In this document: piece after piece, positions 39,307 to 56,110 of the stretch
Position numbering within the stretch: the first letter of the stretch is position 1
How the letters are laid out: each line of letters begins with the position of its first letter
From: an uncultured Anaerolineales bacterium
GTDB taxonomy: Bacteria; Chloroflexota; Anaerolineae; Epilineales; Epilineaceae
NCBI GenBank assembly: GCA_964549495.1
Contig: CAZJWJ010000006.1
Location: forward strand, 22,274 to 86,273
Length of the DNA: 64,000 nucleotides
Direction: 5' to 3'
Program-made: the position numbers and the translations under genes
The notes under the pieces: generated by a model
Told to the model about the DNA's origin: nothing
Database searches by the model: none
Seen by the model: the letters and a program-made list of their open reading frames with translations, nothing else

Positions 39307-39337
39307 GCTCTTGTCTCCCTCGATCTCGAATTGCGGA

Positions 39338-40390: not shown

Positions 40391-40941
40391 GAGCGTCGAC
40401 CTCCGCGCTCGGCCGAGGAGTCTTCGGCCAGACGCTCGGTGGGCACCTGGATGTAGAGCAGGCCCGAGCGGAGTTCCAGCGGATAGCGCGGCAGCGACTG
40501 GCCGGCCTCGGCCGGCGGCCCTTCGGTGGCCACGCCCGAGGGGTCGAATACCCCGTTGTGACAGGGGCAGAAGAAGCGATCGTTCTGGGCCTGCCAATGC
40601 ACCTGGCAACCCAGATGCGGACAGACGCTGGAGAGCGCCACGAAGTCCTCCACGCCGCCGGCCTCGCCCTGGCGGGCGATGTTGATCGTCTCGCCGTTGG
40701 GCGCGCGGTACATCATCGCCGCGCCCGGCGCCAGCTCGTCGGCGCGGGCCAGGAACATCCACTGCCGCGCCGGATCGCCCGCCGGGTAGAGGTAGCGCAT
40801 CGCCAGGCGCGCGAAGTTGCCGTAGCCGGCCACCAGCCCCAGGCCCATCGCCACTCCGGACAGCCGGGCCAGAAAGCCGCGCCGGCTGCTGCCCGCGCCC
40901 GGGTCGGACGGGGCGGAAGAAGGCTTGTCGCTCGGGTCCAT
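40387..40941 (-). CDS. Rieske [2Fe-2S] subunit with Tat signal
   Basis: Twin-arginine motif SRRGFLARL. Cluster boxes CPHLGC and CPCHNG. ATG at 40941 is preceded by GAGGAGG; alternative ATG at 40977. Confidence 0.9.
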   Translation of the reverse strand: MDPSDKPSSAPSDPGAGSSRRGFLARLSGVAMGLGLVAGYGNFARLAMRYLYPAGDPARQWMFLARADELAPGAAMMYRAPNGETINIARQGEAGGVEDFVALSSVCPHLGCQVHWQAQNDRFFCPCHNGVFDPSGVATEGPPAEAGQSLPRYPLELRSGLLYIQVPTERLAEDSSAERGGRRS

Positions 40942-41039
40942 GCGCGCCTCCTCGGGTCCACGGGTCTCGTCGAGCATGCATTGTTCACGGCATCTTTTTG
41001 CTGTCAAGCGTAAGCAAAATACCCCTTCCGTGCCGCTCA

Positions 41040-41053
41040 TTGCGCTAGCGCAA
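41040..41053. promoter_or_regulatory. Perfect palindrome TTGCG-CTAG-CGCAA, candidate Crp/Fnr(NnrR/Dnr-type) box in the divergent promoter
   Basis: The 14-bp perfect inverted repeat TTGCGCTAGCGCAA fits the TTG-N8-CAA family pattern and the TTGCG-N4-CGCAA variant described for NnrR. It lies between the Rieske start (40941, -) and the sco1 start (41137, +). Confidence 0.4.
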
Positions 41054-41136
41054 AGACGCACCTTCTTGCTGGCGATAGGCTGGTCTCGAGGTCGAGTTCC
41101 GAAGATCCGGTCTCGAGGATGGCGAAGGAGGCGGTC

Positions 41137-42162
41137 ATGACCTCGGAGGGTCCGAGCAAGGAGATGAGCGTGGCGCAGGTCCTGGCCCGGTGGCCGGAGA
41201 CCACCGCCGTGTTCCTCTCCCTGAGAACCGCCTGTCCGGGCTGTGCCCTGTCCCGTTTCTGCAGCCTGTCCGACGTGGCCCGCGAGTACGCGCTGCCCGT
41301 CGAAGAGATCCTCGAACGCCTGCAGGAGGCCATCGCCAGTCGAGTCGACGCAGCCGAGGGCTCGGAGGCATCGGCCTCCGAGCGCGGCCCCTCGATCGAC
41401 GACCCCTTCGAGAGCCCGCGGCGCTCGCTCCGGGCCGCGGCGGCCATCCTGCTCTTGGCCGGCCTGATCCAAGCCTGCGGCGGCATGGCGGATCCCCCTC
41501 CCGGAGCGGCCGTGGACGAGGCCGGCGCGCGGGTCGCGGCGGCTTCCGATCGGAGCCCCTCCGGCGACCCCGCGGCGATCGACGAGCAACCGGCATCGGA
41601 TCCGTCGCCGACCCCGGCCGGCCTGCGCGGCGAGCCGATCCTGCCCGAGCGCCCGGCCCCCGACTTCCTGCTGCAGGGTCCGGGCGGTGCCGACTGGCGC
41701 CTGTCCGAAGCTCGCGGTCGCGTGGTCGCGCTCTTCTTCGGCTACACCCACTGCCCCGACGTCTGCCCGCAGACGCTCAACCGGGTCCGGCAAGCCCTGC
41801 TGCAGCTCGATGACGACCAAGCCGCCGAGGTCCTATCGGTCCTGATCACCGTCGATCCCGAGCGCGACAGCGCCGAGCGACTCGAGCGCTACGTGACCGG
41901 TTTCGGTGCGGGCTTCGTCGGACTGCGCGGCTCGCCGGAGGCGATCGCGGACGTGGCCGCGGGCTACGGGGTTCGCTACGAGAAGGAGCTGCCCGATGGC
42001 GCCGACCCGCAGGTCGCCGCCGAAAACTACAGCGTCGCCCACTCCGGCCGGGTCTTCCTGATCGACGCGGCCGGCCAATTGCGGACCAGCTTCATCGGTC
42101 CCTTCACGCCCGAAGAGATGGCGCAGGACCTGCGCCTCTTGCTCGCAGAGCGCCGGCCCTGA
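41137..42162 (+). CDS. SCO1/SenC copper chaperone with N-terminal DUF1858-like domain and TM anchor
   Basis: N-terminus MSVAQVLARWPETTAVFLSLRTACPGCALSRFCSLSDVAREYALPVEEILERLQ (DUF1858-like). TM AAAILLLAGLIQA. SCO1 core ALFFGYTHCPDVCPQTL ... YSVAHSGRVFLID. ATG at 41137 has an AAGGAGG SD; alternative ATG at 41119. Confidence 0.8.
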   Translation: MTSEGPSKEMSVAQVLARWPETTAVFLSLRTACPGCALSRFCSLSDVAREYALPVEEILERLQEAIASRVDAAEGSEASASERGPSIDDPFESPRRSLRAAAAILLLAGLIQACGGMADPPPGAAVDEAGARVAAASDRSPSGDPAAIDEQPASDPSPTPAGLRGEPILPERPAPDFLLQGPGGADWRLSEARGRVVALFFGYTHCPDVCPQTLNRVRQALLQLDDDQAAEVLSVLITVDPERDSAERLERYVTGFGAGFVGLRGSPEAIADVAAGYGVRYEKELPDGADPQVAAENYSVAHSGRVFLIDAAGQLRTSFIGPFTPEEMAQDLRLLLAERRP

Positions 42163-42178
42163 GATGGCCGGACGCTTG

Positions 42179-42235
42179 GATCACCGATCTCGAACCGTTC
42201 ACCGAACTCGATCACCGATTCCGATCACGAGGAGG
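42179..42235 (+). repeat. Direct 13-nt repeats G(A/T)TCACCGA(A/T)YYC immediately upstream of nosZ
   Basis: GATCACCGATCTC (42179-42191), GTTCACCGAACTC (42197-42209), GATCACCGATTCC (42210-42222), and a partial GATCACGAGGAGG (42223-42235) that runs into the nosZ SD. Confidence 0.5.
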
Positions 42236-42241
42236 AATGCA

Positions 42242-44329
42242 GTGAAACGCGCAATGACCATCATGGCCCTGCTGTTGGTCGTGCCGGCCCTGGTCTTCGG
42301 CTGCCGGAGACAGGACGTCGACACCAGCGGTCAGCCCCGCCCCGAAGAAGCCCAGACGGGCGCCGGCGATGCCCGACCGGGCGCCGGTGCGGCCGTCTCC
42401 GGGCTGAGCGACACCGCGGCCGACATCGCCGCCGAGCGCGGCCTTTCACCGGATGACGTCGAGGCCGCCCTCAAGACCTTCATGCCTTCGGGTACGCACG
42501 ACGAGTACCTGATGTTCGCCTCGGGCGGCCATAGCGGGCAGGTGCTGGTCATCGGCATGCCCTCGATGCGCCTGCTCAAGGTCATCGCCGTCTTCACGCC
42601 CGAGCCCTGGCAGGGCTGGGGCTTCGGCGCCGACGGCACCGACGCGGTGCTGGACGGCGGCGACGTGCGCGAGGGCCGCCAGGTGCGCTGGGCCGACACC
42701 CACCACCCGGCGCTCTCGGAGACCGAGGGCGACTACGACGGCCAGTTCGTCTTCATCAACGACAAGGCCAATGCCCGCATCGCGGTGGTCGACCTGCGGG
42801 ACTTCGAGACCAAGCAGATCGTCAAGAACCCGGTCAGCGACGTCGACCACGGCGGTGCCTTCGTCACCCCCAACACCGAGTGGATCGTCGAGGGCGGCCA
42901 GTACGCCACGCCGCTGGGCTTCGAGTACGCCGGCCTGGACGAGTACGACGAGCGCTACCGCGGCCACGTCACCTTCTGGAAGTTCGACCGCGAGGCGGGC
43001 CGCATCGACATCGAGCAGAGCTTCGCCATGGAGCTGCCGCCCTACTGGCAGGACCTGAGCGATGCCGGCAAGCTGGTCAGCGAGGGCTGGGTCTTCCTCA
43101 ACAGCTTCAACGCCGAGCGCGCCACCGGCAACGATGGCAGCGAGAACGGCGTCAACTTCGAGTCCGGCGCTTCGCAGAACGACATGGACTACATGCACCT
43201 GATCAACCTCGATCGAGCGGCCGAGGTGGCGGTGTCCGGTCCGACCACCGAGATCAACGGCATGCCGGTCATCTCGATGGACACCGCCATCGAAGAGGAC
43301 CTGCTCTACCTGATGCCCGAGCCCAAGAGCCCGCACGGCGTCGACGTGACGCCCGGCGGCGACTACCTGGTGGTCTCCGGCAAGCTCGACCCGCACGTGA
43401 CCGTCTACAGCTGGGAGAAGATCCAGGCGGCCATTGGGGCCGGCCAGTGGGACACGGACGACTACGGCCTGCCGATCCTGCCCTTCGACGACGTGGTCGA
43501 GACCCAGGTCGAGGTCGGTCTGGGCCCGCTGCACACCCAGTTCGACGGCCAGGGCTACGCTTACACCAGCCTCTTCCTGGACACCGCCGTCGCCCGCTGG
43601 AGCCTGGGCGGGGACTACACGCCCGAGGGCCAGGAGCCCTGGAGCCTCATCACCAAGACGCCGGTGCAGTACAACGTCGGCCACCTGGCGGCCGCCGAGG
43701 GCGATACGGTCAGCCCGGACGGCAAGTTCCTGGTCTCGCTCAACAAGTGGGCCGTCGACCGCTTCCACAACGTCGGCCCGCTCCTGCCGCAGAACTTCCA
43801 GCTCTTGGACATCAGCGCGGGCGGCACCGACATGCCGGTGATCTACGACATGCCCATCGGCATCGGCGAGCCGCATTACGCCCAGATCATCAAGGCCGAC
43901 AAGCTCTCCGGCTGGGAGACCTACCCCGAGGTGGGCTGGGATCCGCTGGAGCAGGCGCCGGCCGAGAACGCGGCCATGCCGGGCGAGGAGCGCGTCGAGC
44001 GCGACGGCAACCAGGTCGAGATCTACATGACCGCCATCCGCAGCCACTTCACGCCCGAGCGGGTTCAACTGCGCCAGGGCGACGAGGTGACGCTGCACAT
44101 CACCAACATCGAGACCGCCCACGACGCCACGCACGGCTTCGCCATCACGGCCTACGGCGTCAACCTCTCGCTGGAGCCGGGCGAGAGCGAGACGGTGACC
44201 TTCACCGCCGACGAGCCGGGCGTCTTCCCCTACTACTGCACCGAGTTCTGCTCGGCGCTGCACCTGGAGATGCTGGGCTACATGCTGGTCGAGCCGGCCG
44301 AGGCGGCCGCGCAGGCCATCACGCCCTGA
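42242..44329 (+). CDS. nosZ: Nitrous-oxide reductase, Sec/lipoprotein-type signal (clade II / atypical)
   Basis: CuA site HDATHGFAI...YYCTEFCSALHLEMLGYMLVEP. N-terminal propeller DEYLMFASGGHSGQVLVIGMPSMRLLKVIAVF. The signal VKRAMTIMALLLVVPALVFGC has no twin-arginine. GTG at 42242 follows GAGGAGGA. Confidence 0.95.
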   Translation: MKRAMTIMALLLVVPALVFGCRRQDVDTSGQPRPEEAQTGAGDARPGAGAAVSGLSDTAADIAAERGLSPDDVEAALKTFMPSGTHDEYLMFASGGHSGQVLVIGMPSMRLLKVIAVFTPEPWQGWGFGADGTDAVLDGGDVREGRQVRWADTHHPALSETEGDYDGQFVFINDKANARIAVVDLRDFETKQIVKNPVSDVDHGGAFVTPNTEWIVEGGQYATPLGFEYAGLDEYDERYRGHVTFWKFDREAGRIDIEQSFAMELPPYWQDLSDAGKLVSEGWVFLNSFNAERATGNDGSENGVNFESGASQNDMDYMHLINLDRAAEVAVSGPTTEINGMPVISMDTAIEEDLLYLMPEPKSPHGVDVTPGGDYLVVSGKLDPHVTVYSWEKIQAAIGAGQWDTDDYGLPILPFDDVVETQVEVGLGPLHTQFDGQGYAYTSLFLDTAVARWSLGGDYTPEGQEPWSLITKTPVQYNVGHLAAAEGDTVSPDGKFLVSLNKWAVDRFHNVGPLLPQNFQLLDISAGGTDMPVIYDMPIGIGEPHYAQIIKADKLSGWETYPEVGWDPLEQAPAENAAMPGEERVERDGNQVEIYMTAIRSHFTPERVQLRQGDEVTLHITNIETAHDATHGFAITAYGVNLSLEPGESETVTFTADEPGVFPYYCTEFCSALHLEMLGYMLVEPAEAAAQAITP

Positions 44330-44447
44330 CCCGACGACTTTCTCTCCTCCAAGCCGCGCGTGGGGGATGGGACCGCTCCCGTCCCCCACGCCGGCCGGGC
44401 CCGAGCCGAAGCCCGGCCGGCGGCGCTCCAACCGGGAGCCTCAGGAC

Positions 44448-45107
44448 ATGAACGACATCGATGAGAGGGTCGCAGGAAGCCGAAGCGTCACGCCTCCGAC
44501 CGACGCCAGCGACCATCGCCACGGCCCCTACCGCCTCTCCAGCCTCTTCTTCGCCGGCGCGGCCGCGCTGGTCGTGGCCTCCATCTTCTTCCCCTACTGG
44601 CGAATGCGCCTCAACGCGCCGCAATACCCCAAGGGCCTCTTCCTGACGGTCTACATCGACCATCTGCAAGGCGACATCTCCGAGATCGACGGCCTCAACC
44701 ACTACATCGGCATGGCCCCGCTGAGCGAGGCGGCCGGCATCGAGCGCCTGCTGGCGCCGGTGGCCATGGCGGCCATCGTGCTGATGGTGCTGGCCACGGC
44801 CTTCGTGCACCGCAAGTGGTTTGCGCCGCTGACCCTGCCGGCCATGCTCCTGCCCCTGGTCTTTCTGGGCGACATGTACTATTGGCTGCGCAGCTACGGT
44901 CAGAACCTGGACCCCAGCGCCGCCCTCTCCAGCGCCATCAAGCCCTTCACCCCCACCCTGATCGGCCACGGCGAGATCGGCCAGTTCTCGACCGATGCCA
45001 GCCTCGAGCCCGGCTTCTGGCTGGCCGTCGGCGCTAGCATCCTGATCAACGTCGGCCTGCACTACCGCCGCAAGGCACGGCGCGAGCTGCTCGGGGAGGC
45101 CGGCTGA
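44448..45107 (+). CDS. nosB: NosB-like integral membrane protein of clade II nos clusters
   Basis: Position directly after nosZ. Four TM segments (LSSLFFAGAAALVVASIFF, LLAPVAMAAIVLMVLATAF, LTLPAMLLPLVFLGDMYYW, GFWLAVGASILINVGL). The assignment rests on synteny and topology only. Confidence 0.6.
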   Translation: MNDIDERVAGSRSVTPPTDASDHRHGPYRLSSLFFAGAAALVVASIFFPYWRMRLNAPQYPKGLFLTVYIDHLQGDISEIDGLNHYIGMAPLSEAAGIERLLAPVAMAAIVLMVLATAFVHRKWFAPLTLPAMLLPLVFLGDMYYWLRSYGQNLDPSAALSSAIKPFTPTLIGHGEIGQFSTDASLEPGFWLAVGASILINVGLHYRRKARRELLGEAG

Positions 45108-46639
45108 TGGACCCGCTTCGTTGGCCGAGCTGCGAAGTCGCGGCATACCTCGCGCCGCGCCTCCTGCGCTTGGCGATGCTGGCCGCTGCCTTGGTCGCCG
45201 CCCCCCAAGGCGGTCATCCGGTCGCGGCTCAGGACCTCACCGAAGACGAAATCGAGGTGGCGAGCTTCGACGGACGTCGACTCCAGGTCGGAGCGGAGCT
45301 CGACTACTCGACGCTGGCCGAGGCCCTGTCCGAGGCGCGGGACGGCGATCGCATCGAGGTCCATGGTGGCCATCACACCGGGCCCTTCGCCATCGACGTG
45401 GCCATCGCGCTGGTCGGCATCGACCGGCCGGTGCTCGACGGCGGCGGCGAGGGCGACGTGCTGCGCCTGGGCGCGGCGCCGTCCCGCGTGGCCGGCTTCG
45501 AGATCCGGGGCAGCGGCGATCGCAACGACCGCGAGGATGCCGGCATCCGGGCCGATGCCGGGCCGGTCTCCATCGAGGACAACCACCTGGTCGACGTGCT
45601 CTACGGCATCAACCTCAAGCAGGCGCCCGGCAGCTTGATCGCCCGCAACGTCGTGCGGGGCCGCGACATCCACATCGCCCGCCGCGGCGACGGGATCCGC
45701 ATCTGGGAGAGCCACGGCACGCGCATTCTCGACAACCGGGTCGAGGCCGGGCGCGACGTGGTGATCTGGTATTCCGAGGACCTCTTGATCCGCGGCAATA
45801 CCGTGCGCGACGGGCGCTACGGGCTGCATTACATGTACTCCCACGCCAGCCGCATCGAGGCCAATCGCCTCGAGCGCAACGCGGTGGGCGCCTTCCTGAT
45901 GTACTCCAAACAGCTGCTGATCGAGGGCAATGCGATGACCGGCAACCACGGCCCCTCGGGCTACGGGCTGGCGCTCAAGGACAGTGACGACATCCAGGTG
46001 ATCGGCAACGTGATGGCCGGCAACCGGGTCGGCCTCTACCTGGACGGTACGCCCTCCAGCCGCGAGGCGCAGGGCATCGTCGAGCGCAACCACCTGGCCT
46101 ACAACGACATCGGCGCCCTGCTGCTGCCGGCGGTGAAGCGCAACCGCTTCGCGGCCAACAGCTTCGTCGAGAACGGCCAGCAGGTGGCGCTGACCAGTCG
46201 CGGCTCGGCCGATGGCAACGACTGGACGCCCGACGGCCGGGGCAACTACTGGAGCGACTACGCCGGCTACGATGCCGACGGCGATGGCCTGGGCGACTTG
46301 CCCTACCAGCCCGCCAGCCTCTTCGACGACCTGTTGACGCGCCAGCCCGAGCTGCGGCTCTTCAGCATGAGCCCGGCCCAGGGCATGCTCGACCTGGCCG
46401 CCCGGGCCTTCCCGGTCTTCCGCCCGCCGGCCATCCTGACCGACGCTGCCCCGCGCACCCGCCCCCTGCCCTCGCCCGTGGCGGCTCCAGAGCGAAAGGG
46501 AGGACCGCTGGTCGCATTGGCCCTGGGCCTGGTGGCCTCGGCGGCACTCCTGATCGCGTGGGGACGAGCCCTGGACGCGACCACGCCCGGGCGCGAGCGA
46601 CCGCGCGCGCTGCCCGAGCCCACGAGGATCCGACCATGA
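45107..46639 (+). CDS. nosD: NosD periplasmic beta-helix accessory protein
   Basis: Parallel beta-helix repeats NHLVDVLYGINL, GDGIRIWESHGTRILDNRV, GRYGLHYMYSHASRIEANRLERNAVGAFLMYS, GYGLALKDSDD. The start overlaps the nosB stop (TGATG). Confidence 0.9.
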   Translation: MDPLRWPSCEVAAYLAPRLLRLAMLAAALVAAPQGGHPVAAQDLTEDEIEVASFDGRRLQVGAELDYSTLAEALSEARDGDRIEVHGGHHTGPFAIDVAIALVGIDRPVLDGGGEGDVLRLGAAPSRVAGFEIRGSGDRNDREDAGIRADAGPVSIEDNHLVDVLYGINLKQAPGSLIARNVVRGRDIHIARRGDGIRIWESHGTRILDNRVEAGRDVVIWYSEDLLIRGNTVRDGRYGLHYMYSHASRIEANRLERNAVGAFLMYSKQLLIEGNAMTGNHGPSGYGLALKDSDDIQVIGNVMAGNRVGLYLDGTPSSREAQGIVERNHLAYNDIGALLLPAVKRNRFAANSFVENGQQVALTSRGSADGNDWTPDGRGNYWSDYAGYDADGDGLGDLPYQPASLFDDLLTRQPELRLFSMSPAQGMLDLAARAFPVFRPPAILTDAAPRTRPLPSPVAAPERKGGPLVALALGLVASAALLIAWGRALDATTPGRERPRALPEPTRIRP

Positions 46640-47523
46640 CCGAGACCATGATCCACGCGGAGGCGCTGCGCGTCCGCTTCGGGCACGCGACCGTGCTGGA
46701 TTCGCTGAGCTTCGAGCTGCCGGCCGGCGGCAGCCTGGCCCTGTGGGGCGAGAACGGTGCCGGCAAGACCACCGCCATCCGGGCGCTGCTGGGCCTCCTG
46801 CCTTTCGAGGGCCGCGTGACCATCGCCGGCCATCCGCTGCCAGAGCGGGGCCGTCAGGCGCGCGCCCAGGTGGGCTACGTGCCCCAACAGCTGGCCTTCT
46901 ACGAGGACATGCCGGCCCTGGCCTTGCTGCGCTACTTCGCCGGACTGCGCGGCACGCCGCGTGACCAGGCGCCGGCCTTGCTGGAGCGCGTCGGCCTGGG
47001 CGACCAGGCCAAGAAGGCCGCCGGCGCCCTCTCTGGCGGCATGCGCCAACGCCTAGCCCTGGCGGTGGCCCTGCTGGGCCAGCCGCCCATCCTGATCCTC
47101 GATGAGCCGACGGCCAGCCTGGATCGCGAGGCGCGGGCGGACTTCGGGCAGCTGCTGGCCGAGCAGCGCGCGGCCGGCCGGGCGCTGCTCTTCACCTCGC
47201 ACCGCATCGAGGAGGTGGTCGCCTTGGCCGACCAGGTGATCGTGCTAACCGGTGGCCGCGAGCGCTTGCGCTGCGAGGCCGGCCAGCTCGAGCGTGCGCT
47301 GCGACCCGAGACGATCCTGCGCATCGCTCTGTCCGAGGCGGGGATCGAGACCGCGCTGTCGGTGCTGACCAGCCAGGGTTTCGAGGCCCGCCGCAACGGT
47401 CACGGCGTCAAGGTCCGCGTGGCCACCGGCGAGCGGGCCGCGCCCCTGTCGGCCCTGGCCCGCGCCGGCATTCCGCCCATCGACTTCCAACTGGAGGAGG
47501 CGCGCACATGGCCCCCCGAGTGA
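46636..47523 (+). CDS. nosF: NosF ABC-transporter ATPase
   Basis: Walker A GENGAGKTT, signature LSGGMRQRL, Walker B ILILDEPTASLD. ATGA overlap with nosD. Confidence 0.85.
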   Translation: MTETMIHAEALRVRFGHATVLDSLSFELPAGGSLALWGENGAGKTTAIRALLGLLPFEGRVTIAGHPLPERGRQARAQVGYVPQQLAFYEDMPALALLRYFAGLRGTPRDQAPALLERVGLGDQAKKAAGALSGGMRQRLALAVALLGQPPILILDEPTASLDREARADFGQLLAEQRAAGRALLFTSHRIEEVVALADQVIVLTGGRERLRCEAGQLERALRPETILRIALSEAGIETALSVLTSQGFEARRNGHGVKVRVATGERAAPLSALARAGIPPIDFQLEEARTWPPE

Positions 47524-48338
47524 TCCTGCTGGTGGCCCGCAAGGAGGTGCGCGACGCCCTGCGCAACCGCTGGTTCCTGCTGTATGCCATCGGCTTCGCC
47601 GTCCTGGCCCTGGCCCTCTCGCGCCTGAGCCTGAGCGCGGGCAGCGCGGCCGGCTTCAGCGGCTTCGGTCGCACCGCCGCCAGCCTGGTCAACCTGGTGC
47701 TCCTGGTCGTGCCTCTGATGGGCCTGACCCTGGGCGCCGGCAGCCTGGCCGGCGAGCGCGAGCGCGGCACCCTGGCCGCCCTGCTCTCTCAGCCCGTCTC
47801 GCGCCGCGAGGTCTTGCTCGGCAAGTTCCTCGGCCTGGCCCTGGCGCTCTGCGCCGCCCTGGCCCTGGGCTTCGGCCTGGCCGGATTGGCGGTGGGCGCC
47901 GGCGGCGGGGCCGTCGGCGCCGAGGCCTACGCCGGCCTCCTGGGCTTCACGTTGCTCTTGGCCCTTGCGATGTTGGCCCTGGGCCTGCTCATCTCCTCCC
48001 TGTCCCGACAGGTCGGCACGGCCACCGGCGTGGCGCTCTTCGCCTGGCTGGCGCTGGTCTTCCTGGGCGATTTGGGCCTCATGGGCAGCGCCATGACCAT
48101 GCGCATGGACGTGGGCACGCTTCTGGCGCTGGGCCTGGTCAACCCGCTATCCAGCTTCAAGATCGCCGCCGTCGGCGCCATCACCGGCAGCCTGGACGTG
48201 CTGGGGCCGGCCGGTGTCTACGCCACCCGCCACTACGGCGCGGCCTTGCCGGCCATCCTGGCCGGCCTGCTCGTCGCCTGGTGTCTGGCGCCCTTGGCAG
48301 CCGCCGGCTGGATCTTCGAGGAGAGGGGGATCCGATGA
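47508..48338 (+). CDS. nosY: NosY ABC-2-type permease
   Basis: Six-TM ABC-2 permease (VARKEVRDALRNRWFLLYAIGFAVLALAL ...). It overlaps nosF by 16 nt and nosL by 4 nt. Confidence 0.8.
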   Translation: MAPRVILLVARKEVRDALRNRWFLLYAIGFAVLALALSRLSLSAGSAAGFSGFGRTAASLVNLVLLVVPLMGLTLGAGSLAGERERGTLAALLSQPVSRREVLLGKFLGLALALCAALALGFGLAGLAVGAGGGAVGAEAYAGLLGFTLLLALAMLALGLLISSLSRQVGTATGVALFAWLALVFLGDLGLMGSAMTMRMDVGTLLALGLVNPLSSFKIAAVGAITGSLDVLGPAGVYATRHYGAALPAILAGLLVAWCLAPLAAAGWIFEERGIR

Positions 48339-48889
48339 TGAACCGCCCGACCTTTGGTCGCCTCGAATTCGGTCGGCGACCGGCGAGCGTCACCGCTCTC
48401 GCCATCCTGTTTGGGCTGCTGTTCGTGCTGACCGGGACCCTCACGGGCTGCGGACCGGACACCGATCCGCTGGCCCCGCCGGAGATCCGCTACGGTGAGG
48501 ACGTCTGCGACGCCTGCCAGATGATCATCTCCGACCCCCGCTTCGCTGCGGCGACCGTCGTCGAGGTAGATGGGGCGAGCCAGGCGCGGCGCTTCGACGA
48601 CATCGGCGATCTGCTGGAGTACCACCGGGAGGATCCGGATCTGGTGGTCTTGGCCTGGTACGTCCACGACTACGACAGCGAAGCCTGGCTGGACGCCCGT
48701 CGGGCGCACTACGTCCGCGCCGAGGGCATCCGCAGCCCGATGGGCTTTGGCTTGGCGGCCTTCGCCGAGCCCGAGCGAGCCGAGGCATTCGCTGCCGAGA
48801 TGGCGGGCGAGGTCCTCGACTTCGAGACCCTGCTCGGCCGGCCGCCAGGCGGGTCGACGGCAAGCGAGTCACCGGGCAGCTTTCCCTGA
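48335..48889 (+). CDS. nosL: NosL copper-chaperone lipoprotein
   Basis: Lipobox LTGC. EDVCDACQMIISDPRFAA ... GIRSPMGFGLAAF is typical of NosL. ATGA overlap with nosY. Confidence 0.85.
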   Translation: MMNRPTFGRLEFGRRPASVTALAILFGLLFVLTGTLTGCGPDTDPLAPPEIRYGEDVCDACQMIISDPRFAAATVVEVDGASQARRFDDIGDLLEYHREDPDLVVLAWYVHDYDSEAWLDARRAHYVRAEGIRSPMGFGLAAFAEPERAEAFAAEMAGEVLDFETLLGRPPGGSTASESPGSFP

Positions 48890-48953
48890 TTCCATATCCC
48901 AGCTCCGATCTTCAACCCCAATCCGAAACCGATTCCCGCGAGGAGAGACGACG

Positions 48954-49412
48954 ATGCGAACGATGAACTGGATCCGCCGGATGACGCTCGCCCTGGCGCT
49001 GCTGACCATGGCCACCGGTGCCATGGCCTGCAACGGCTCCGAGCCCGCCGATCCCGCCCCGCCCGATTCCGCCGATTCGGCCGAAGGCTCGAGCGACGAC
49101 GCGGCCGATGCCGAGCTGCCACCGGGCCTGGTCGCCGGTGACCCGGCCAATGGGGAAGAGCGCTTCACGCCCTGCGCCGGCTGTCACGGTGCCGATGCCA
49201 CCGGCATCGAGGGACTGGGCAAGAACCTGCGCACCAGCGAGTTCCTGGACGGTCTGAGCGACGCCGAGGCCGTGGCCTTCTTGAAGGAGGGCCGGCCGGC
49301 CGGCCATCCGCTCAACACCACCGGAGTGGACATGCCGCCCAAGGGCGGCGACCCGACGCTGAGCGAACAAGACCTGCTGGACATCGTGGTCTATTTGCGA
49401 GACCTCGAGTGA
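48954..49412 (+). CDS. Membrane-tethered monohaem c-type cytochrome
   Basis: Signal MRTMNWIRRMTLALALLTMATGAMAC, an acidic linker, one CAGCH motif and a distal Met region (GVDMPPKGG). GAGGAGAG SD. The track start at 48570 is rejected. Confidence 0.8.
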   Translation: MRTMNWIRRMTLALALLTMATGAMACNGSEPADPAPPDSADSAEGSSDDAADAELPPGLVAGDPANGEERFTPCAGCHGADATGIEGLGKNLRTSEFLDGLSDAEAVAFLKEGRPAGHPLNTTGVDMPPKGGDPTLSEQDLLDIVVYLRDLE

Positions 49413-49560
49413 TTCTGGCATGCTGCGGCCCGACCGGGAGCCTCGAAGACCTGCTCGATTCCTCGGACTGCAAGGCGAGGAACGGCATGGGTTCCCCGGA
49501 CCGCTCGAGCGCCCGCCACGGGTGCACACGTCGAGGAGCAAGGAGAGGAGAGTGGATACC

Positions 49561-49740
49561 ATGACCGAAGAAATGCGCGACGCGACGGTCCACGAGGAAG
49601 GGGAGGCACATCCCTGGCAGCAGGTGCTGCTGGACGATGTCTTCCTGTTGATGATGGCCGGCCTGGTGGTGCCGACCCTGTTCTACATCGTCTGGGGCCT
49701 GATGGAACTGGCCCAGGTGCCGGTCTTCAGCGCGCCATGA
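49561..49740 (+). CDS. Single-TM small subunit (ba3 subunit IIa-like position) of the HCO operon
   Basis: 59 aa with one TM (VFLLMMAGLVVPTLFYIVWGLM). AGGAGAGGAG SD. Its stop overlaps the subunit II start (ATGA). Confidence 0.55.
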   Translation: MTEEMRDATVHEEGEAHPWQQVLLDDVFLLMMAGLVVPTLFYIVWGLMELAQVPVFSAP

Positions 49741-50312
49741 ATCAGACCCACACCGGGGACGCGGGTGCGACCATCGCCCGCAACAGCACCCTGATCGCGC
49801 CGGAGGGCCGTTGGTGGGCGCCGCTGGGACGGGACGAGCGCCTGTGGGTGCTGGTCACCCTGATCTGGGCGCTGGCCATGTTCGCCATGATGCAGCTGAT
49901 CTGGCCGCGCATCGGCGATCAGCAGACCGTCATCGAGACCTTCCGCGTCGAGCCGACGGCCTTCCAGGGGCTCGTCACCGAGTTCACCGAAACCCATCAG
50001 GTCGAGGAGCGCGCCGGAATGCCGGTGGTCGCGCCGCCGCCCGGTCCGGTCTACCTGCTGGCCATGCGCTACCAGTTCCGGCCCATCCTGCGCCTGCAGC
50101 AGGGTGAGACCTACGAATTGCACATGAGCTCGCTGGACGTGCAGCACGGCCTGTCGCTGCAGCCGGACAACGTCAACTTCCAGGTGCTGCCGGGTTACGT
50201 GACCGTCCTGAAGATCACGCCCAAGGAGGTGGGGGACTACGTGGTGGTCTGCAACGAGTACTGCGGTACCGGTCATCACCTAATGTTGGGTGGAATCGAG
50301 GTGGTCCAATGA
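49737..50312 (+). CDS. Haem-copper oxidoreductase subunit II (one TM + CuA cupredoxin)
   Basis: Single TM LWVLVTLIWALAMFAMMQLIW. CuA ligands HGLSLQP ... CNEYCGTGHHLM (CxExCGxxHxxM). Confidence 0.85.
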   Translation: MNQTHTGDAGATIARNSTLIAPEGRWWAPLGRDERLWVLVTLIWALAMFAMMQLIWPRIGDQQTVIETFRVEPTAFQGLVTEFTETHQVEERAGMPVVAPPPGPVYLLAMRYQFRPILRLQQGETYELHMSSLDVQHGLSLQPDNVNFQVLPGYVTVLKITPKEVGDYVVVCNEYCGTGHHLMLGGIEVVQ

Positions 50313-52018
50313 GCGCCACCCGCGAGACGACCATCGGGCGTATCTGCCAGGTGACCGGCCTGACGGTCGATCCCAAGGCCGAGCGCCTGCTCTTGTTCAA
50401 CGCCGTCACGGCCGTGCTCTGGCTGGCCACCGGCGGCACTTTGGCGCTGCTCACGCTCCTGACGCGCTGGCAGGATGTCGGGCTGATCACCGACTCGGAA
50501 TGGTTCTACCGGATCATCGGCGCCCACGGCGCGGCCATGCTGCTCTTCTGGATCCTCTTCTTCGAGGTGGCCGGCCTGATCTTCGGCGGCAGCATCCTGC
50601 TCAGCCGGCGCATGCGCGCGCCGCGCATGGGCTGGCTGGCCTACTGGATGATGCTCGTCGGCTCCCTGGCCACCTTCGTGATCATGCTCTCCGGCGATGC
50701 CACGGTGATGTTCACCGCCTACCCGCCGCTGGAGGCCACCAGCTGGTTCTACTTCTGGATCCTGATCTTCGCCGTCGGCGCCCTGGTGGCGGTGCTGCAC
50801 TTCTTGGTCAACGTCGTGGCCGCGCGGCTCGACGGGATGCGCACCCTGCCTCTCTTCACCTTCGCGCTGGTGGTGGCGGCCATCCTGGCCCTCTTCACGC
50901 TCGTCTCCGGCACCTTGGCCATCGTGCCGGCCTGGCTCTGGAGCCTGGGCCTGATCGACCACGTCGACCCCGGCAGCTACCGGCTGCTCTTCTGGGGCTT
51001 CGGCCACGGGGCGCAGCAGGTCAACCTGGCGGCCATGGTCGGCATCTGGTACGCCCTGGCCACGCTGACCACCGGCGCCAGGCCGATCAACGAAGGGCTC
51101 AGCCGGGGGGCCTTCGTCCTCTACGTGCTCTTCATCCAGATGGGCTCGATCCACCACATCCTGGTCGATCCCGGACTGGGCGAGTGGGCGCGCGGCATCA
51201 ACACCAGCTACTTCCTCTACGCGGCGGTGCTTGGCAGCATGATCCACGCCTTCACCATCCCGGCCAGCGTCGAGGTGGCCCAGCGCGGCGCCTCGCGTGG
51301 CAAGGGGCTGCTCGGCTGGCTGCGCGCCGCGCCCTGGTCCTCGCCGGGCTTCGCCGCCTTGGCGGTGAGCTTTGCGATGTTCGGCATCCTGGGCGGCATC
51401 AGCGGCGTGATCATGGGCGGGGTGCAGGTGAACATGATCGCCCACAACACGCTGATCGTGCCGGCCCACTTCCACATGACGGTGGTGGCCGGCACGACCC
51501 TGGCCTTCATGGGCATCAGCTACATCCTGGTTCCCTTGATCGTGCGCCGCGACCTCTTCCTGCCTTCCTGGGCCCGATGGCAGCCCTACATCTTCGGGCT
51601 GGGCATGCTGATCTTCGGCATCGGCATGGGCCTGGCCGGCCATGCCGGCTTGCCGCGCCGCCACTTCGACATCACCTTCAACGGCTTGCCCTTGGCCCAA
51701 GGGATCTTCGAGACGCCCTTCGTCGATCGGACCTTGGCCATGATGGGCATCGGCGGTCTGATCGCCATCACCGCCGGCGCCATGTTCGTGGTGGTGGCGG
51801 CCGGCACCGTCTTCTTGGGCAAGCGCAACGACTGCCCGGAGGTCGGCGATTTGGATGCACGTGCCCTGACGCCGGAGAGCCGCGAGCCGGTGCACGCCGG
51901 CCGCTTCGAAGCGCCGGGCACCTTCGTCCTGGCCACGGTCTGGCTGGCGCTCTTCGTGCTGCTCTATGCCTACTCCTGGCGCGAGCTGGGCCAGGTCGCC
52001 TGGATCATCGGGCGCTGA
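50309..52018 (+). CDS. Haem-copper oxidoreductase subunit I, atypical active site (candidate NO reductase of the B-family-related type)
   Basis: HCO His ligands are present: GAHGAAML, FWGFGHGAQQVN, SIHHILVD, VPAHFHMTVV. The residue 4 positions after the first CuB/FeB His is Gln (HGAQQ) rather than the Tyr of GHPxVY. ATGA overlap with subunit II. Confidence 0.9.
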   Translation: MSATRETTIGRICQVTGLTVDPKAERLLLFNAVTAVLWLATGGTLALLTLLTRWQDVGLITDSEWFYRIIGAHGAAMLLFWILFFEVAGLIFGGSILLSRRMRAPRMGWLAYWMMLVGSLATFVIMLSGDATVMFTAYPPLEATSWFYFWILIFAVGALVAVLHFLVNVVAARLDGMRTLPLFTFALVVAAILALFTLVSGTLAIVPAWLWSLGLIDHVDPGSYRLLFWGFGHGAQQVNLAAMVGIWYALATLTTGARPINEGLSRGAFVLYVLFIQMGSIHHILVDPGLGEWARGINTSYFLYAAVLGSMIHAFTIPASVEVAQRGASRGKGLLGWLRAAPWSSPGFAALAVSFAMFGILGGISGVIMGGVQVNMIAHNTLIVPAHFHMTVVAGTTLAFMGISYILVPLIVRRDLFLPSWARWQPYIFGLGMLIFGIGMGLAGHAGLPRRHFDITFNGLPLAQGIFETPFVDRTLAMMGIGGLIAITAGAMFVVVAAGTVFLGKRNDCPEVGDLDARALTPESREPVHAGRFEAPGTFVLATVWLALFVLLYAYSWRELGQVAWIIGR

Positions 52019-52076
52019 GGTCCCGATCGCGATGGACGGCTCGGCCCGGTCGACGCGAATGCAGCCGAGTTCGCCT

Positions 52077-52988
52077 TCACCGAGATGTCGAATCCTCATC
52101 GGAGGCCGGCGCGCCGTCGAGCGCGCCGGCCTCTCGCGCCAGCAGCCGCAGCAGCAGGACCAGGTAGATCAGGCCGCCGGCGAACATGATCCAGCCGCCG
52201 AGCCGCTGGTCGGCCAGGGCGCTCATGCCCCACAGCCCGGTGGAGCGCGCGGCGTACCAGGGGTAGAGCGGCCGGGCGGAGAAGATCAGGGCCAAGGCCA
52301 CCAGCATGCCGGCCATGCTGCTGGCGAAGCAGAGGCCGTAGACGGCGTGGCTGCTGCCCGATCGTCGATCTCGATCGCCCGGAGACTCGCCGAGCCCTCG
52401 AAGCACCAACCACCAGAAGGCCATCGCGCTGCCCAGCATCAAGAGGTGCTCGGCCCCGTGAATCGGCCGGCTGCGCAGGGCGGCGTCGTAGGCCGGCGGC
52501 AGATGCCAGACCAGCAGGTTGAGGTTGAAGACCAGGCCGACCAGCCAGGGCCGGCGGGCCGGGGCCAGCAGGCGGCCGATCCAGCGTTCCAGCTCCGGTC
52601 GCGGGCCGGCCAGGAGGCCGGGCAATGCCTGCCGGGCGACCGCCAAGGGGCGCGCATAGAAGAGCAGCGGCGGCGCGATCTGCAGCAGGACCAAGTGCTG
52701 CACCATGTGCGCCGCCAGGGCGTCGTCGCTGTAGACCTCGATCGGCCCGCCGAAGGCGACGGCCAGCGAGGTCAGGCCGGCCAGGAAGGCCAGGAGATGG
52801 CGGATCCCGAAGGCCCGCTCGGCGGATGCCCGGCGCCAGGCCCAGAAGTAGGCCAGGCCGGACAGCGCCACGAGCAGTGCGAGCCCGGGTGCCAAGGCCA
52901 GGATCGGCCAGTCGCCGGTACCGCTGGTATGCGCCGGCCCGGCGCGGGGCCCGAAAGCCAGCGGCCCGGCGGGATTCCATCGGCTCAT
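52077..52988 (-). CDS. ctaG: CtaG-type (Bacillus caa3_CtaG family) cytochrome oxidase assembly factor
   Basis: Polytopic membrane protein with AAHMVQHLVLLQIAPPLL, VWHLPPAYDAAL, HGAEHLLMLGSAMAFWW, ADQRLGGWIMFAGG. The start MSRWNP at 52988 is in frame with the track ORF, whose first 54 aa are rejected. Confidence 0.8.
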   Translation of the reverse strand: MSRWNPAGPLAFGPRAGPAHTSGTGDWPILALAPGLALLVALSGLAYFWAWRRASAERAFGIRHLLAFLAGLTSLAVAFGGPIEVYSDDALAAHMVQHLVLLQIAPPLLFYARPLAVARQALPGLLAGPRPELERWIGRLLAPARRPWLVGLVFNLNLLVWHLPPAYDAALRSRPIHGAEHLLMLGSAMAFWWLVLRGLGESPGDRDRRSGSSHAVYGLCFASSMAGMLVALALIFSARPLYPWYAARSTGLWGMSALADQRLGGWIMFAGGLIYLVLLLRLLAREAGALDGAPASDEDSTSR

Positions 52989-53113
52989 GCGTTCAGAACT
53001 CCCTGCACGGTTCGGATATGCGAGCAGGCGCCGAGGCGCTTGTCGCCGGACCGTGTCGAGGTGTCGACATCGAGGCTTCGGCCAAGGCACGGAGGTGCTT
53101 CGTGAAGGATAAC

Positions 53114-55015
53114 ATGCCCGTCCGATCGAGTCGCTGGCGACGTTGGGCATTGCTGCTCGGCGTCGCCGGCTTGCTGTTCGGCCTTTCGGCCTGCCAGAAT
53201 CCTGCAGCCCAGCCCGAGGCGACGCCGGCCGTCGATTCGCCGTCCGAAGATGCGGCCGCAGATCCAGAGTCAGATCCGGCGACCTCGGACGAGGGCTCCG
53301 GTGACGCCGGTCCGCGTTCCAGCTCGGATGAGCCCGCGGCAGAGGCGGTCGACCTGGCCGCGATGGATGCCGAGTGGCCGACCGAGATGCTCAACGGCGA
53401 GGCCGGGCCGACCAAGAGCACCGTTCTCGACGCCATCCGCGCGCGCGACCTGCCGGAGACCTTGCCCTTGACCGAGGACTTCGCCGGCGAGGACTTTGCC
53501 GGGCGCCCGCTGATCGAGACGGCGCGCGAGTCGGGTATCGTCATCCTTGACTGGCCGCCGCCCTCGACCAGCGATCTGCCCGGCGATCGGTGGGCCGAGC
53601 GATTCGAGGCCTGGCTGGCCGAGTTCGCCGAGATCGAGCATACCGAGATCCACACCTGGGAGATCCAGCAGCTGGATCGCCCCGATGTCGAAGCTGCCAT
53701 CGAGGTCGTCGAGGCGCTCTGGGTGGTCGGCACGACGCCCGAGGGGCGCCGGCGCGAGGATCGGCTCTACCTGGTCTTCGACCTGATCAAGGATCCGACG
53801 CTGGTCGAGGTAGCCGATGCCGAAGATCAGGCGACCACGCAAGAATCCGAGGAGGCGGCCTCGGAGCCGGAGGACCTCGGCTGGCGCATCGCCGGAGTGC
53901 GCAGTCGCGAGGGCCGGACGGTGATCGCCGAGGGGCGCTACTTCCAGGACGTGACCGAGCAGGTCTTGCCGGGCGGCTACGATCAGTCGGGCGCCGAGGT
54001 CTATACCGCGGCCGGCCCCGCGCTGGGCGACTTCGACGGTGACGGCGACCTGGACCTGTTCATGCCGCGCATGCACGCGCCGATGCGGCTATACGCCAAC
54101 GACGGCAGCGGCCGCTTCCGCGATGTCACCGAGGACTGGGGGCTGCTGGATCGGCGCAGCCTGGAAGGCAGCATCAGCGGTGCCTTCGCCGATGTCGACC
54201 AGGATGGCTTGCGCGACCTCATGGTGCTCTTCCAGGGTCGCGGCCTGCGCGTCTACCGCAACGAGGGCAGCGCCTTCCGCGACATCACCGGACCGGTCGA
54301 TCTGGCCGGACCGGGCCAGTGGCAGACCCTGTCGGTGGCCGACGTCGACGGTGACGGCTTCCCGGATGCCTACCTGACCAACTACAACCTCATCGACACG
54401 ACGCATCAACCCGAGAACTATGTCGATGCCACCGACGGCCTGCCCAACGTGCTCTTGCGCAACACGGGTGATGGCGGCTTCGAGGATGCGACCGAAAGCC
54501 TGGGCCTGGACGTCGACAACCGGCGCTGGACCTACGCCTCGGCCTTCGCCGACTACGACGCCGACGGCGATGTCGACCTCTATGTGGCCAACGACTACGG
54601 TCCCAACCACCTCTTCGAAAACGATGGCGAGGGGCGCTTCCGCGACGTGACCGAGGCCTTGTCGGCCACCGACCAGGCCAACGGCATGGGCGTCAGCTGG
54701 TTGGACTTCGATGGCGACCTGGACCTGGATCTCTACATCTCCAACATGCAGAGCTTCGCCGGCAACCGCATCACCCGCCTGGAGCACTTTCCGGGTAGCG
54801 GCGAGCAGTCGGCGCTCTACCGGCGCTTCTCGCAGGGCAGCACGCTTCTCCGCAACGACGGCGACGATGGATTCACCGAGTGGAGCGAGCAGGCCGGCGT
54901 CAAGGCCGCCTTCTGGGCCTGGGGCGCGGCGCCCTTCGACTACGACGCCGACGGCGACGAGGACATCTTCAGCGCGGCCGGCTTCTACACCGGGCCCAAC
55001 GCGGCCGACACCTGA
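53114..55015 (+). CDS. CRTAC1/ASPIC-like lipoprotein with FG-GAP/VCBS repeats; reading frame ends at in-frame TGA 55013-55015
   Basis: Lipobox LLFGLSAC. Repeats GDFDGDGDLDLFM, ADVDQDGLRDLMV, ADVDGDGFPDAYL, ADYDADGDVDLYVANDYGPNHLFENDG, LDFDGDLDLDLYISN, FDYDADGDEDIF. The track start at 52625 (antisense to ctaG) is rejected. Confidence 0.75.
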   Translation: MPVRSSRWRRWALLLGVAGLLFGLSACQNPAAQPEATPAVDSPSEDAAADPESDPATSDEGSGDAGPRSSSDEPAAEAVDLAAMDAEWPTEMLNGEAGPTKSTVLDAIRARDLPETLPLTEDFAGEDFAGRPLIETARESGIVILDWPPPSTSDLPGDRWAERFEAWLAEFAEIEHTEIHTWEIQQLDRPDVEAAIEVVEALWVVGTTPEGRRREDRLYLVFDLIKDPTLVEVADAEDQATTQESEEAASEPEDLGWRIAGVRSREGRTVIAEGRYFQDVTEQVLPGGYDQSGAEVYTAAGPALGDFDGDGDLDLFMPRMHAPMRLYANDGSGRFRDVTEDWGLLDRRSLEGSISGAFADVDQDGLRDLMVLFQGRGLRVYRNEGSAFRDITGPVDLAGPGQWQTLSVADVDGDGFPDAYLTNYNLIDTTHQPENYVDATDGLPNVLLRNTGDGGFEDATESLGLDVDNRRWTYASAFADYDADGDVDLYVANDYGPNHLFENDGEGRFRDVTEALSATDQANGMGVSWLDFDGDLDLDLYISNMQSFAGNRITRLEHFPGSGEQSALYRRFSQGSTLLRNDGDDGFTEWSEQAGVKAAFWAWGAAPFDYDADGDEDIFSAAGFYTGPNAADT

Positions 55016-55036
55016 AGCGTCTTCTGGCGCCAGGTC

Positions 55037-56110
55037 ATGGCGTCCGATAGCGAAGGCCAAGCGGCCGAGCGCGAAGCCGGACATCAAAACCACTTCCGAC
55101 AGCTGAGCCAGGAGGGCAAGAGCTGGAGCGGCCGCGAGCCGGACACCCTCTTCCAGAATCGCGGCGATGGCACCTACGACGAGGTCGGCCAGGTCATCGG
55201 CGTGGCCAGCCGCCTGGACAGCCGCGGCGCGGCCACCGGCGACTTGGATGGTGATGGCGATCTGGACCTGGTGGTGATGAGCCGCAACAACCCCATCATC
55301 AAGATCTATCGCAACGATACGCCGCTCGAGCAGCAGGGTCGTGTGCTGCAAGTCGACCTGGTCCATGACACATCCGGGAGCGAGGCCATCGGCGCCCGGG
55401 CCGTCGCGCGCTGCGGCGATGCCGCGGTGTTGCGCCAGGTCTCGGCCGGCTCCGGCTACCTGGCCCAATCGGCCTCGACCCTGCACTTCGGCTTGGGGGC
55501 CTGCGAGGGTCCGGCCACGCTGGAGGTGCTTTGGCCCGGCGGCCAGCGGCAGGACTTCGAGGGCCTGGAGGTCGACCGGCGCTACCGCATCGCCCAAGGC
55601 GAGGAATCGGTCGTGCGGCAGTCGCTGCGCGAGCGGAACTTCAGTGCCGGCGAGGTGGGCCCGCCGGCCGGGGACATCTCGGCGCCGCTGCCCGAGGTGC
55701 GTCTCGACTGGTTGGACGGCGAAGGCAGCTTCGAGCCGGCCGCCGGCCAGGGCATCCGCGTGCTCAACTTCTGGGCCACTTGGTGCACGGCCTGCATCGC
55801 CGAGATGCCAGACCTCGAGCGGCTCAAGGGCGAGTTTGGACCCAAGGGGGTCGAATTCGTCGGCCTGATCATGGACGAGCGCGAGCTGGAATCCGAGGTC
55901 CGCGCCTTCGCCGAGGATCGCGGCGTCAGCTACGCGCAGGCCTGGGGCACGATCGACTTCGAGAGCGACTTGGCCTCCATCGCCAACGCGCCGGCCGGCG
56001 CCATCCCGCTGACGGCGGTGGTCCAGGACGGCATCGTGCGCCACGCGGTGGCCGGCCGCATCGACCCGGGCGACATGGCCCGCCGGCTGGAGGCGCTGCT
56101 CGGGGAATAG
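55037..56110 (+). CDS. Same-frame continuation of the CRTAC1/ASPIC-like protein: last FG-GAP repeat, UnbV/ASPIC-like domain, C-terminal TlpA/ResA-like thioredoxin domain
   Basis: It is in the same frame as 53114-55015; only one TGA separates them, and sense codons resume at 55016 (SVFWRQV). LFQNRGDGTYDEVG, GDLDGDGDLDLVVMS, SGSGYLAQSASTLHFGLG..LEVLWPGG (ASPIC/UnbV-like), then VLNFWATWCTACIAEMPDL. Confidence 0.7.
   Translation: MASDSEGQAAEREAGHQNHFRQLSQEGKSWSGREPDTLFQNRGDGTYDEVGQVIGVASRLDSRGAATGDLDGDGDLDLVVMSRNNPIIKIYRNDTPLEQQGRVLQVDLVHDTSGSEAIGARAVARCGDAAVLRQVSAGSGYLAQSASTLHFGLGACEGPATLEVLWPGGQRQDFEGLEVDRRYRIAQGEESVVRQSLRERNFSAGEVGPPAGDISAPLPEVRLDWLDGEGSFEPAAGQGIRVLNFWATWCTACIAEMPDLERLKGEFGPKGVEFVGLIMDERELESEVRAFAEDRGVSYAQAWGTIDFESDLASIANAPAGAIPLTAVVQDGIVRHAVAGRIDPGDMARRLEALLGE

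Follow-up and report, generated by a model that had tools for sequence, protein, structure and literature searches.

Does the TGA at positions 55013-55015 end a protein, or does it encode selenocysteine (Sec) within a longer one? The question is raised by a gene in a 64,000-nucleotide (nt) stretch of DNA from an uncultured Anaerolineales bacterium (contig CAZJWJ010000006.1, positions 22,274 to 86,273; the whole stretch is referred to as the window, and positions are counted from its first letter). Gene callers annotate 53114-56110 on the forward strand as two open reading frames (ORFs) of 633 and 357 amino acids (aa), and the two halves of the product are found as separate entries, P0001 and P0121, in the protein database. 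Translation of the interval gives 999 codons in one frame, with TGA 55013-55015 as the sole internal stop and TAG 56108-56110 as the terminator; read as a complete selenoprotein gene, it would specify 998 residues with Sec (U) at position 634. An initial annotation of the window had raised Sec recoding as a possibility, and comparison with relatives bears this out: we consider it very probable that the UGA encodes Sec. No reading other than Sec recoding explains the whole of the evidence: the codon is TGA in every locus while the real terminators of the same genes vary; the peptide is conserved across the stop and no start codon is; a conserved, covarying hairpin that fits the model of the bacterial Sec insertion sequence (bSECIS) lies at a spacing like that in fdhF; nature also offers a Cys version of the same architecture; the TGA co-occurs with a CxxC thioredoxin-fold domain; and one family member shares its contig (L007) with a curated selenoprotein gene and selABCD have been reported in planctomycetes with such genes (PMC4807772).

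A TGA codon inside a conserved frame

Sense codons resume directly after the stop. The flanks read GFYTGPNAADT-TGA-SVFWRQVMASDSEG, that is, NAADT-TGA-SVFWRQVMASD, and seven sense codons, S-V-F-W-R-Q-V (55016-55036), separate the UGA from the ATG at 55037 with which the second ORF is called to begin. The two ORFs are thus, as the initial annotation had it, in the same frame and parted by this TGA only. Its further claim, that the FG-GAP repeats on both sides belong to one polypeptide, was upheld by domain searches and by full-length single-chain homologues. On the read-through product, Pfam finds FG-GAP_3 (PF13517; 151.6 bits in seven stretches) and FG-GAP (PF01839; 62.3 bits), which together mark out a beta-propeller at 53933-55318 that spans the TGA, with the last blade (aa ~700-735; FG-GAP match at aa 706-721) encoded downstream of it. 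Among NCBIfam models, none covers the propeller part. The propeller is followed by UnbV_ASPIC (55385-55585, aa 758-824; PF07593, 64.3 bits, E = 9.4e-18, above the cut-off), and this order of domains, together with a match to 9etn_A at E = 2.5e-22, places the product in the CRTAC1/ASPIC-UnbV family.

The read-through product ends in a TlpA/ResA-like thioredoxin-fold domain (55742-56047, aa 877-978), matched by AhpC-TSA (41.7 bits) and Redoxin (40.9 bits), both of which exceed the Pfam cut-offs. Its active-site motif, the W-C-T-A-C that the initial annotation had recognized as TlpA-like, lies at 55781-55795 (aa 890-894), and T-W-C-x-x-C is kept in about 90 orthologues. Scores against the NCBIfam equivalog models for ResA/TlpA stay below their cut-offs (NF002854, 44.6 versus 170 bits; NF047696, 35.8 versus 230), and the C-terminal domain is a relative of the TlpA/ResA fold and no orthologue of ResA or TlpA. 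At the other end, a lipoprotein-type signal peptide (53114-53194; MPVRSSRWRRWALLLGVAGLLFGLSAC) closes with L-S-A-C, and its Cys27 (53192-53194) is invariant across 25 orthologues; this segment is probably a lipobox and the protein is predicted to be exported.

Among relatives, the break recurs at the same place. In a protein search with the read-through product, ~75 clusters at 54-81% identity cover the first half only, and all end in GFYTGxxAxDT; with the second half as query, the ~95 closest clusters are stand-alone ORFs of ~355 aa, no longer fusion was found, and the called starts are inconsistent (MASES, MFWRQ or VLASES). A profile search of 1.84 billion representatives (50% clustering) gave ~26 end-to-end family clusters; 13 stop at the column, ending in D-T or D-L. 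In the DNA, all 58 non-identical loci have TGA at the column, and none has TAA or TAG. These loci, from genomes and metagenomes, comprise 56 non-identical sequences (after removal of one chance match) and the loci L028 and L054. A profile search of genome contigs with the full N-terminal alignment, which used the generic pattern DxDGDxDL, returned distant relatives at 29-46% identity, many of them TGA-type, and did not return the close orthologues. By their record labels, the carriers belong to Acidobacteriota (Thermoanaerobaculia, Bryobacterales and others), Planctomycetota (Pirellulaceae, Planctomycetaceae, Phycisphaerae and Mariniblastus among them) and Verrucomicrobiota (Akkermansiaceae and Roseibacillus among them), with further carriers labeled Caldilineae and one "Proteobacteria" metagenome-assembled genome (MAG).

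This distribution disposes of the alternatives that the initial annotation had kept in reserve, namely a pseudogene through recent nonsense mutation and a sequencing error, and equally of an assembly error. Nothing beyond the bare presence of a stop speaks for such an event, and the same column carries TGA in 58 independently assembled loci and ~75 protein clusters; we regard this explanation as already refuted and its probability as practically nil.

Could the interval instead hold two separate genes, a propeller gene that ends at the TGA and an ASPIC-thioredoxin gene that starts at ATG 55037, perhaps by termination-reinitiation, with the two chains assembling afterward? All gene callers annotate two ORFs, an ATG lies seven codons past the stop in the window and in many close orthologues, and split arrangements may be conserved. 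However, an ordinary stop would not be TGA in all 58 loci, given that the true terminators of the TGA-type genes are TGA in 17, TAG in 16 and TAA in 7 cases; at this usage, the chance that even as few as ten independent ordinary stops should all turn out as TGA is P = 2e-4. Nor does the sequence past the stop behave as an intergenic spacer: the frame continues as S-x-[FY]-W-R-[QH]-V-[VML] in the loci, and the peptide S-x-[FY]-W-R-Q-V, encoded by the seven codons between stop and ATG, is conserved in TGA-type and sense-type homologues alike, for example in the single-chain DL-D-SFFWRQVV. Relatives have CTG or GTG in place of the ATG itself, and different starts are called. Many single-chain proteins carry a sense codon at the column, including Cys and Asp versions, and two genes would leave the conserved hairpin described below with no role. 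Because the cut falls within the propeller before its last blade, because SVFWRQV aligns with single-chain homologues and because the ATG is not kept, the two halves are predicted to be one protein, and we consider two genes highly improbable.

Reassignment of the genetic code was also considered and rejected. Elsewhere in the window TGA serves as an ordinary stop, ending 20 of the 31 coding-like ORFs; therefore, the code is not reassigned. One other same-frame pair joined by a TGA, 7105-8658 and 8659-10434 on the forward strand, was examined and set aside as two ordinary genes with a genuine stop: the first encodes a 5'-nucleotidase and the second an F5/8 type C protein, which begins ~80 codons past the TGA with its own signal peptide, and the intervening codons are not protein-like.

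A conserved hairpin downstream of the UGA

In bacterial Sec insertion, SelB carrying Sec-tRNA(Sec) binds the apical loop of a hairpin in the mRNA, and the UGA is decoded in competition with release factor 2. A candidate element of this kind, GGCGCCA-GGUCA-UGGCGUC, occupies 55026-55044, beginning 10 nt after the TGA. Its upper stem can be drawn with 6 base pairs, as in the initial annotation, or with 7, including an A-U closing pair around a 5-nt loop (55033-55037), and its minimum free energy (MFE) is -10.7 to -11.5 kcal/mol. Optional lower pairing extends the element to 55018-55052, and the pairing of 55018-20 with 55050-52, which had likewise been proposed at the outset, is present in the MFE fold. 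The published bSECIS model (PMC13188914, Fig. 2A) has a loop of 3-9 nt with a G in its first two positions, an upper stem of 4-16 base pairs, a UGA-to-loop distance of 16-37 nt and an MFE of -7.5 kcal/mol or below; the window element, with the 5-nt loop GGUCA starting in GG, a stem of 6-7 base pairs, a spacing of 17 nt and an MFE of about -11 kcal/mol, falls within each of these ranges, in keeping with its first description as SECIS-like.

The closest known counterpart is the SECIS element of E. coli fdhF, likewise an in-gene hairpin right after the UGA, with the hexamer CAGGUC at the apical loop in both. The likeness in geometry noted at first is confirmed by the fdhF sequence of strain K-12 (NC_000913.3), in which GGUC lies at +22-25 from the U of the UGA, compared with +21-24 in the window, where the loop is 1 nt nearer the UGA. 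The stem sequence is unrelated to that of fdhF and forms a perfect helix of 6-7 base pairs. The fdhF element also has a bulged U, to which nothing corresponds in the window.

Comparison across the family shows that the helix is kept. The window and L081, whose proteins are 59% identical, differ at 2 of the 35 nt after the TGA, both of them synonymous third-codon sites, and the hairpin of the window is identical in L083 and L081. In 44 sequences aligned without gaps, the six pairs 15-20:26-31 (counted from the U of the UGA) are formed in 97.7% of the cells, compared with 18-63% in slid controls in which the same partners were moved by 1-3 columns. The pair 18:28 covaries (C-G in 12, G-U in 12, G-C in 10 and A-U in 8 sequences), so that the synonymous third base of an Arg codon changes in step with the opening base of an Ala (GCG), Ser (UCG) or Pro (CCG) codon three positions further on, and RNAalifold independently predicts the same helix. 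Four divergent members (L020, L021, L043 and L045) form a hairpin in shifted register around the same GGUC, and another, L028, has an unrelated 7-base-pair stem, CAGUGUG-GUGC-CACACUG, at the equivalent place. The helix is not kept in eight sense-codon homologues, in which 3-5 of the 6 pairs form and the MFE structures differ.

The proposed Sec, its probable CxxC partner and signs of Sec decoding in carriers

Single-chain relatives most commonly have Asp at the column, followed by Glu, Gln, Asn, Ala, Ser and Arg. Cys is found in P0378 and P0384 (both 50% cluster representatives) and in L056. P0378 (937 aa), which has the architecture in full, can be aligned for 908 residues with what the TGA-type locus L009 would encode on read-through; the two are 39% identical, DS-C-STYWRHVVAS is set against DT-U-STYWRHVVAS, and both have a CxxC near the C-terminus. 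This motif follows the column closely throughout the family: a CxxC located 250-300 residues after the column, right after UnbV_ASPIC, is present in 42 of the 44 TGA-type genes that could be assessed, which come from all phyla, usually within a recognizable AhpC-TSA/Redoxin domain, compared with 0 of 22 sense-type relatives (Fisher 1.5e-15, for counts that are not phylogenetically independent). Four sense-type proteins have retained the AhpC-TSA fold and lost both cysteines, namely P0347 (Asp at the column), P0356 (Ala), P0366 (Ser) and P0394 (Asn), in which the motif has degenerated to FWATTAPES, IWAPHCFPS, FFRADCEES and FWVADSDDC, respectively; these appear to be redox-dead paralogues. Judging from these alignments, the downstream CxxC is retained along with Sec or Cys at the column and lost along with it, as would be expected of a redox pair, and the non-Cys homologues can therefore be explained as redox-inactive paralogues.

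Two features of the downstream part may be recorded here. Some 45 residues past the column, the window has S-W-S-G (55148-55159, aa 679-682); TGA-type proteins have S-[WF]-S-G at this position, whereas Asp-type proteins have S-W-N-G (or S-F-G-G or S-Y-A-G), and the position may be coupled to the Sec column, perhaps through contact in the fold. One TGA-type gene with a good hairpin, in a Planctomycetota MAG (L024:6700 onward), departs from the CxxC rule: its 591-residue downstream part lacks cysteine altogether and has no detectable thioredoxin fold.

Other selenoprotein genes, curated or candidate, occur beside members of the family or on the same contig. In L007, from a Planctomycetaceae MAG, the contig of a TGA-type member also encodes a "TUGYCR motif thioredoxin fold (seleno)protein" (NF053656; L007:1-630 on the reverse strand, running off the end of the locus; 159 bits versus a cut-off of 100), with an in-frame TGA at the U. 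In L028, from an Acidobacteriota MAG, a ResA/TlpA-like gene with the motif FWASW-U-GGC precedes the family member by ~1 kb in the same orientation (L028:4056-4871, forward strand, TGA at 4248); it is a candidate UxxC-type selenoprotein, predicted to be exported, with NCBIfam scores below the cut-offs. The divergent ASPIC-type family member of that locus has its TGA at L028:6760, so that two putative selenoprotein genes stand side by side. The literature offers a parallel: Kim et al. (2016; PMC4807772, S9 Table) listed four ASPIC/UnbV/FG-GAP genes split by a TGA as selenoprotein candidates, each divided into two IMG genes and three of the four positive in bSECISearch; their S8 Table gives selA, selB, selC and selD for the two marine planctomycete hosts, and the closest sense homologue of the candidates is non-Cys (Gly).

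These observations bear on programmed read-through or regulated termination without selenium, in which the hairpin would slow termination, a near-cognate Trp, Cys or Arg tRNA would decode the UGA and a mixture of truncated and full-length protein would result. This explanation also requires a TGA, a downstream structure and a continuing frame. To our knowledge, however, there is no established bacterial mechanism of hairpin-driven UGA read-through that is conserved across phyla, and neither the match of loop sequence and spacing to the SelB-binding fdhF element and the bSECIS model nor the presence of other selenoproteins on contigs of family members would be expected from it. The rare sense alternative that keeps the CxxC is Cys and not Trp or Arg, and the carriers described in the literature have selABCD (PMC4807772). 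We judge selenium-free read-through to be unlikely, if slightly less so than two separate genes.

Several results nonetheless weigh against Sec at this UGA. Taken as a single sequence, the hairpin is not beyond chance: the z-score of a 48-nt fold is -1.2, and the bSECIS features, in our own implementation, are found after 7.1% of the TGA trinucleotides that occur anywhere in the window, which has 69% G+C, a fraction that falls to 0.6% when the loop must also start with GGUC. The W-R-Q-V peptide dictates part of the 5' arm and loop, and Asp-type genes share TGGCGCCAGGTSGTG; because of this coding constraint, only one pair gives true covariation in the main group. The hairpin owes its significance to the comparative data. 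No Rfam family reached its gathering threshold, and relaxing the limit to E <= 10 brought up nothing relevant around the site. Neither selA, selB, selD, tRNA-Sec nor any other tRNA is encoded in the 64-kb window; ARAGORN detected no tRNA-Sec either there or in 38 loci, and tblastn with E. coli SelD and SelA found no match in 1.16 Mb of related loci. At the column itself, most sense-codon relatives are non-Cys and Cys is rare, which is unusual for a catalytic Sec. Within the subfamily of the window, neither the search with the second half nor a junction-spanning peptide query with U replaced by C revealed a Cys orthologue, and the latter gave no match spanning the column. The initial annotation had looked to Cys in homologues at this column and had counted other residues against recoding; three homologues do carry Cys, and most, with Asp in the lead, carry what it had counted against. 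Taken literally, this would speak against Sec, and it does not refute it because the mostly Asp homologues have also lost the CxxC partner.

The absence of decoding genes from the window leads to a further explanation, namely that the family is a true selenoprotein family and that this particular genome has lost Sec decoding, leaving a pseudogene or a truncated product only. The window holds no Sec genes, and the Sec trait is patchy among bacteria. Yet loss of the trait is usually accompanied by TGA-to-TGY changes or by loss of the gene, and a dead gene would decay, whereas here both halves are intact and equally conserved relative to the nearest relatives (79-81% upstream and 80% downstream), the hairpin has not diverged from that of L083 and L081 and the CxxC is intact. 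A relic in this genome is thus as improbable, in our estimate, as two separate genes.

If the UGA encodes Sec, the product would be an exported lipoprotein of ~998 residues with, in order, an N-terminal domain, an FG-GAP beta-propeller, UnbV/ASPIC and a TlpA-like thioredoxin fold. By analogy with E. coli fdhF, a SelB·GTP·Sec-tRNA(Sec) complex would bind the GGUC apical loop of the in-gene hairpin 10-11 nt past the UGA and, competing with release factor 2, bring Sec to the ribosome; a chain that terminated at the UGA would be a propeller without its last blade. Sec634, in the loop before that blade, would be the redox-active residue, with the C-terminal CxxC domain of the same chain as its likely partner. 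The CxxC domain probably recycles Sec634 by reducing a selenenylsulfide or equivalent intermediate and may in turn be re-reduced through a periplasmic DsbD/CcdA route, as are TlpA-type proteins. The genomic neighborhood weakly suggests that the protein takes part in the redox maintenance of extracytoplasmic thiols or metal centres (copper-centre or oxidase maturation). The hint is weak because the copper/oxidase neighbors, COX1 and CtaG, are common to the window and L083 and are not found in L081, which counts against such a link.

Relation to known proteins and genomic context

The candidates of Kim et al. (PMC4807772) have the same domain content and the same division into two ORFs by an in-frame TGA, and from their description, together with our own planctomycete loci (L003, L007, L011 and others), they probably belong to the same family; they appear as a listing in a supplementary table, without analysis. 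The window gene differs from them as a member of another subfamily, with the motif DT-U-SVFWRQVM, no TPR tail and MAGs labeled Acidobacteriota or Chloroflexota. CRTAC1/ASPIC proteins (CRTAC1 being cartilage acidic protein 1; PDB: 9etn) share the succession of FG-GAP propeller and UnbV_ASPIC, with a distant match on both sides of the column, and the sense-codon relatives are named "CRTAC1 family protein" by NCBI. In human CRTAC1, the segment of the Sec column does not align, and CRTAC1 has neither a thioredoxin domain nor Sec. We know of no bacterial CRTAC1/ASPIC protein with a tested function. TlpA/ResA oxidoreductases resemble the C-terminal domain in having a thioredoxin fold with W-C-x-x-C in a predicted exported protein, and selenoprotein relatives of this fold (the UGC-containing TlpA family and the TUGYCR redoxin NF053656) adjoin family members or share their contig. 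In contrast to such Sec-bearing folds, the fold encoded in the window keeps two cysteines, and its Sec would lie ~256 residues upstream, in a propeller loop and not in a UxxC motif.

The family is missing from current catalogs. Among the 119 prokaryotic selenoprotein families tabulated in 2026 (PMC13188914, Table 1), there is no FG-GAP, ASPIC, UnbV or CRTAC1 entry; the deep-Sep and GOS papers do not mention it; and a full-text literature search for a selenoprotein with FG-GAP, ASPIC, CRTAC1, VCBS or UnbV returned nothing relevant. The sole prior trace that we found is the S9 Table of PMC4807772. The recoding mechanism, then, is textbook, and the family is real but uncatalogued, with the window member coming from a subfamily not noted before. 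Four aspects seem new: how broad the family is, its constant pairing with a CxxC thioredoxin fold, a relationship to paralogues that is Sec/Asp rather than Sec/Cys, and the fdhF-like consensus of the element. We would give even chances to the wider proposition that these genes form a large and broad family of exported beta-propeller selenoproteins in which Sec in a propeller loop, at a column held by Asp in redox-dead paralogues and seldom by Cys, and the CxxC of the same chain make up a new extracytoplasmic redox site.

If this is true, selenoenzyme chemistry would for the first time be seen on an FG-GAP/CRTAC1 scaffold, and bacterial CRTAC1/ASPIC proteins might gain a first functional handle. 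The joint retention or loss of Sec (or Cys) and the CxxC gives the testable hypothesis that TGA forms are redox enzymes and Asp forms are not. Annotation pipelines split this gene and its relatives, making CRTAC1/ASPIC architectures and counts systematically wrong in Planctomycetota, Verrucomicrobiota and Acidobacteriota. Recognition of the family would add an exported, multi-domain member without a thioredoxin-fold Sec site to a catalog dominated by small thioredoxin-like proteins, and many genes to estimates of marine and soil selenoproteomes. The close resemblance of the element to the fdhF SECIS makes the recoding directly testable in E. coli.

Ahead of the propeller, the product has an N-terminal domain (53375-53930, aa ~88-272) that gave no Pfam or NCBIfam match and has E91, W147 and H180-T181-W182 among its invariant residues; it is common to the close TGA-type orthologues and several sense-type relatives. 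Elsewhere in the window, 2513-3388 on the forward strand encodes a thioredoxin domain fused to TPR repeats (PF00085, TPR_20 and TPR_19) in a frame free of TGA. The region upstream of the proposed selenoprotein gene (37504-53150) holds respiratory and copper-centre genes, in the order multiheme cytochrome c (reverse strand), cytochrome b (reverse strand), SCO1/SenC, a NosZ-like propeller-cupredoxin protein, NosD, COX1 and Caa3_CtaG (reverse strand), the last of which, as an open frame, shares 37 nt with the beginning of that gene.

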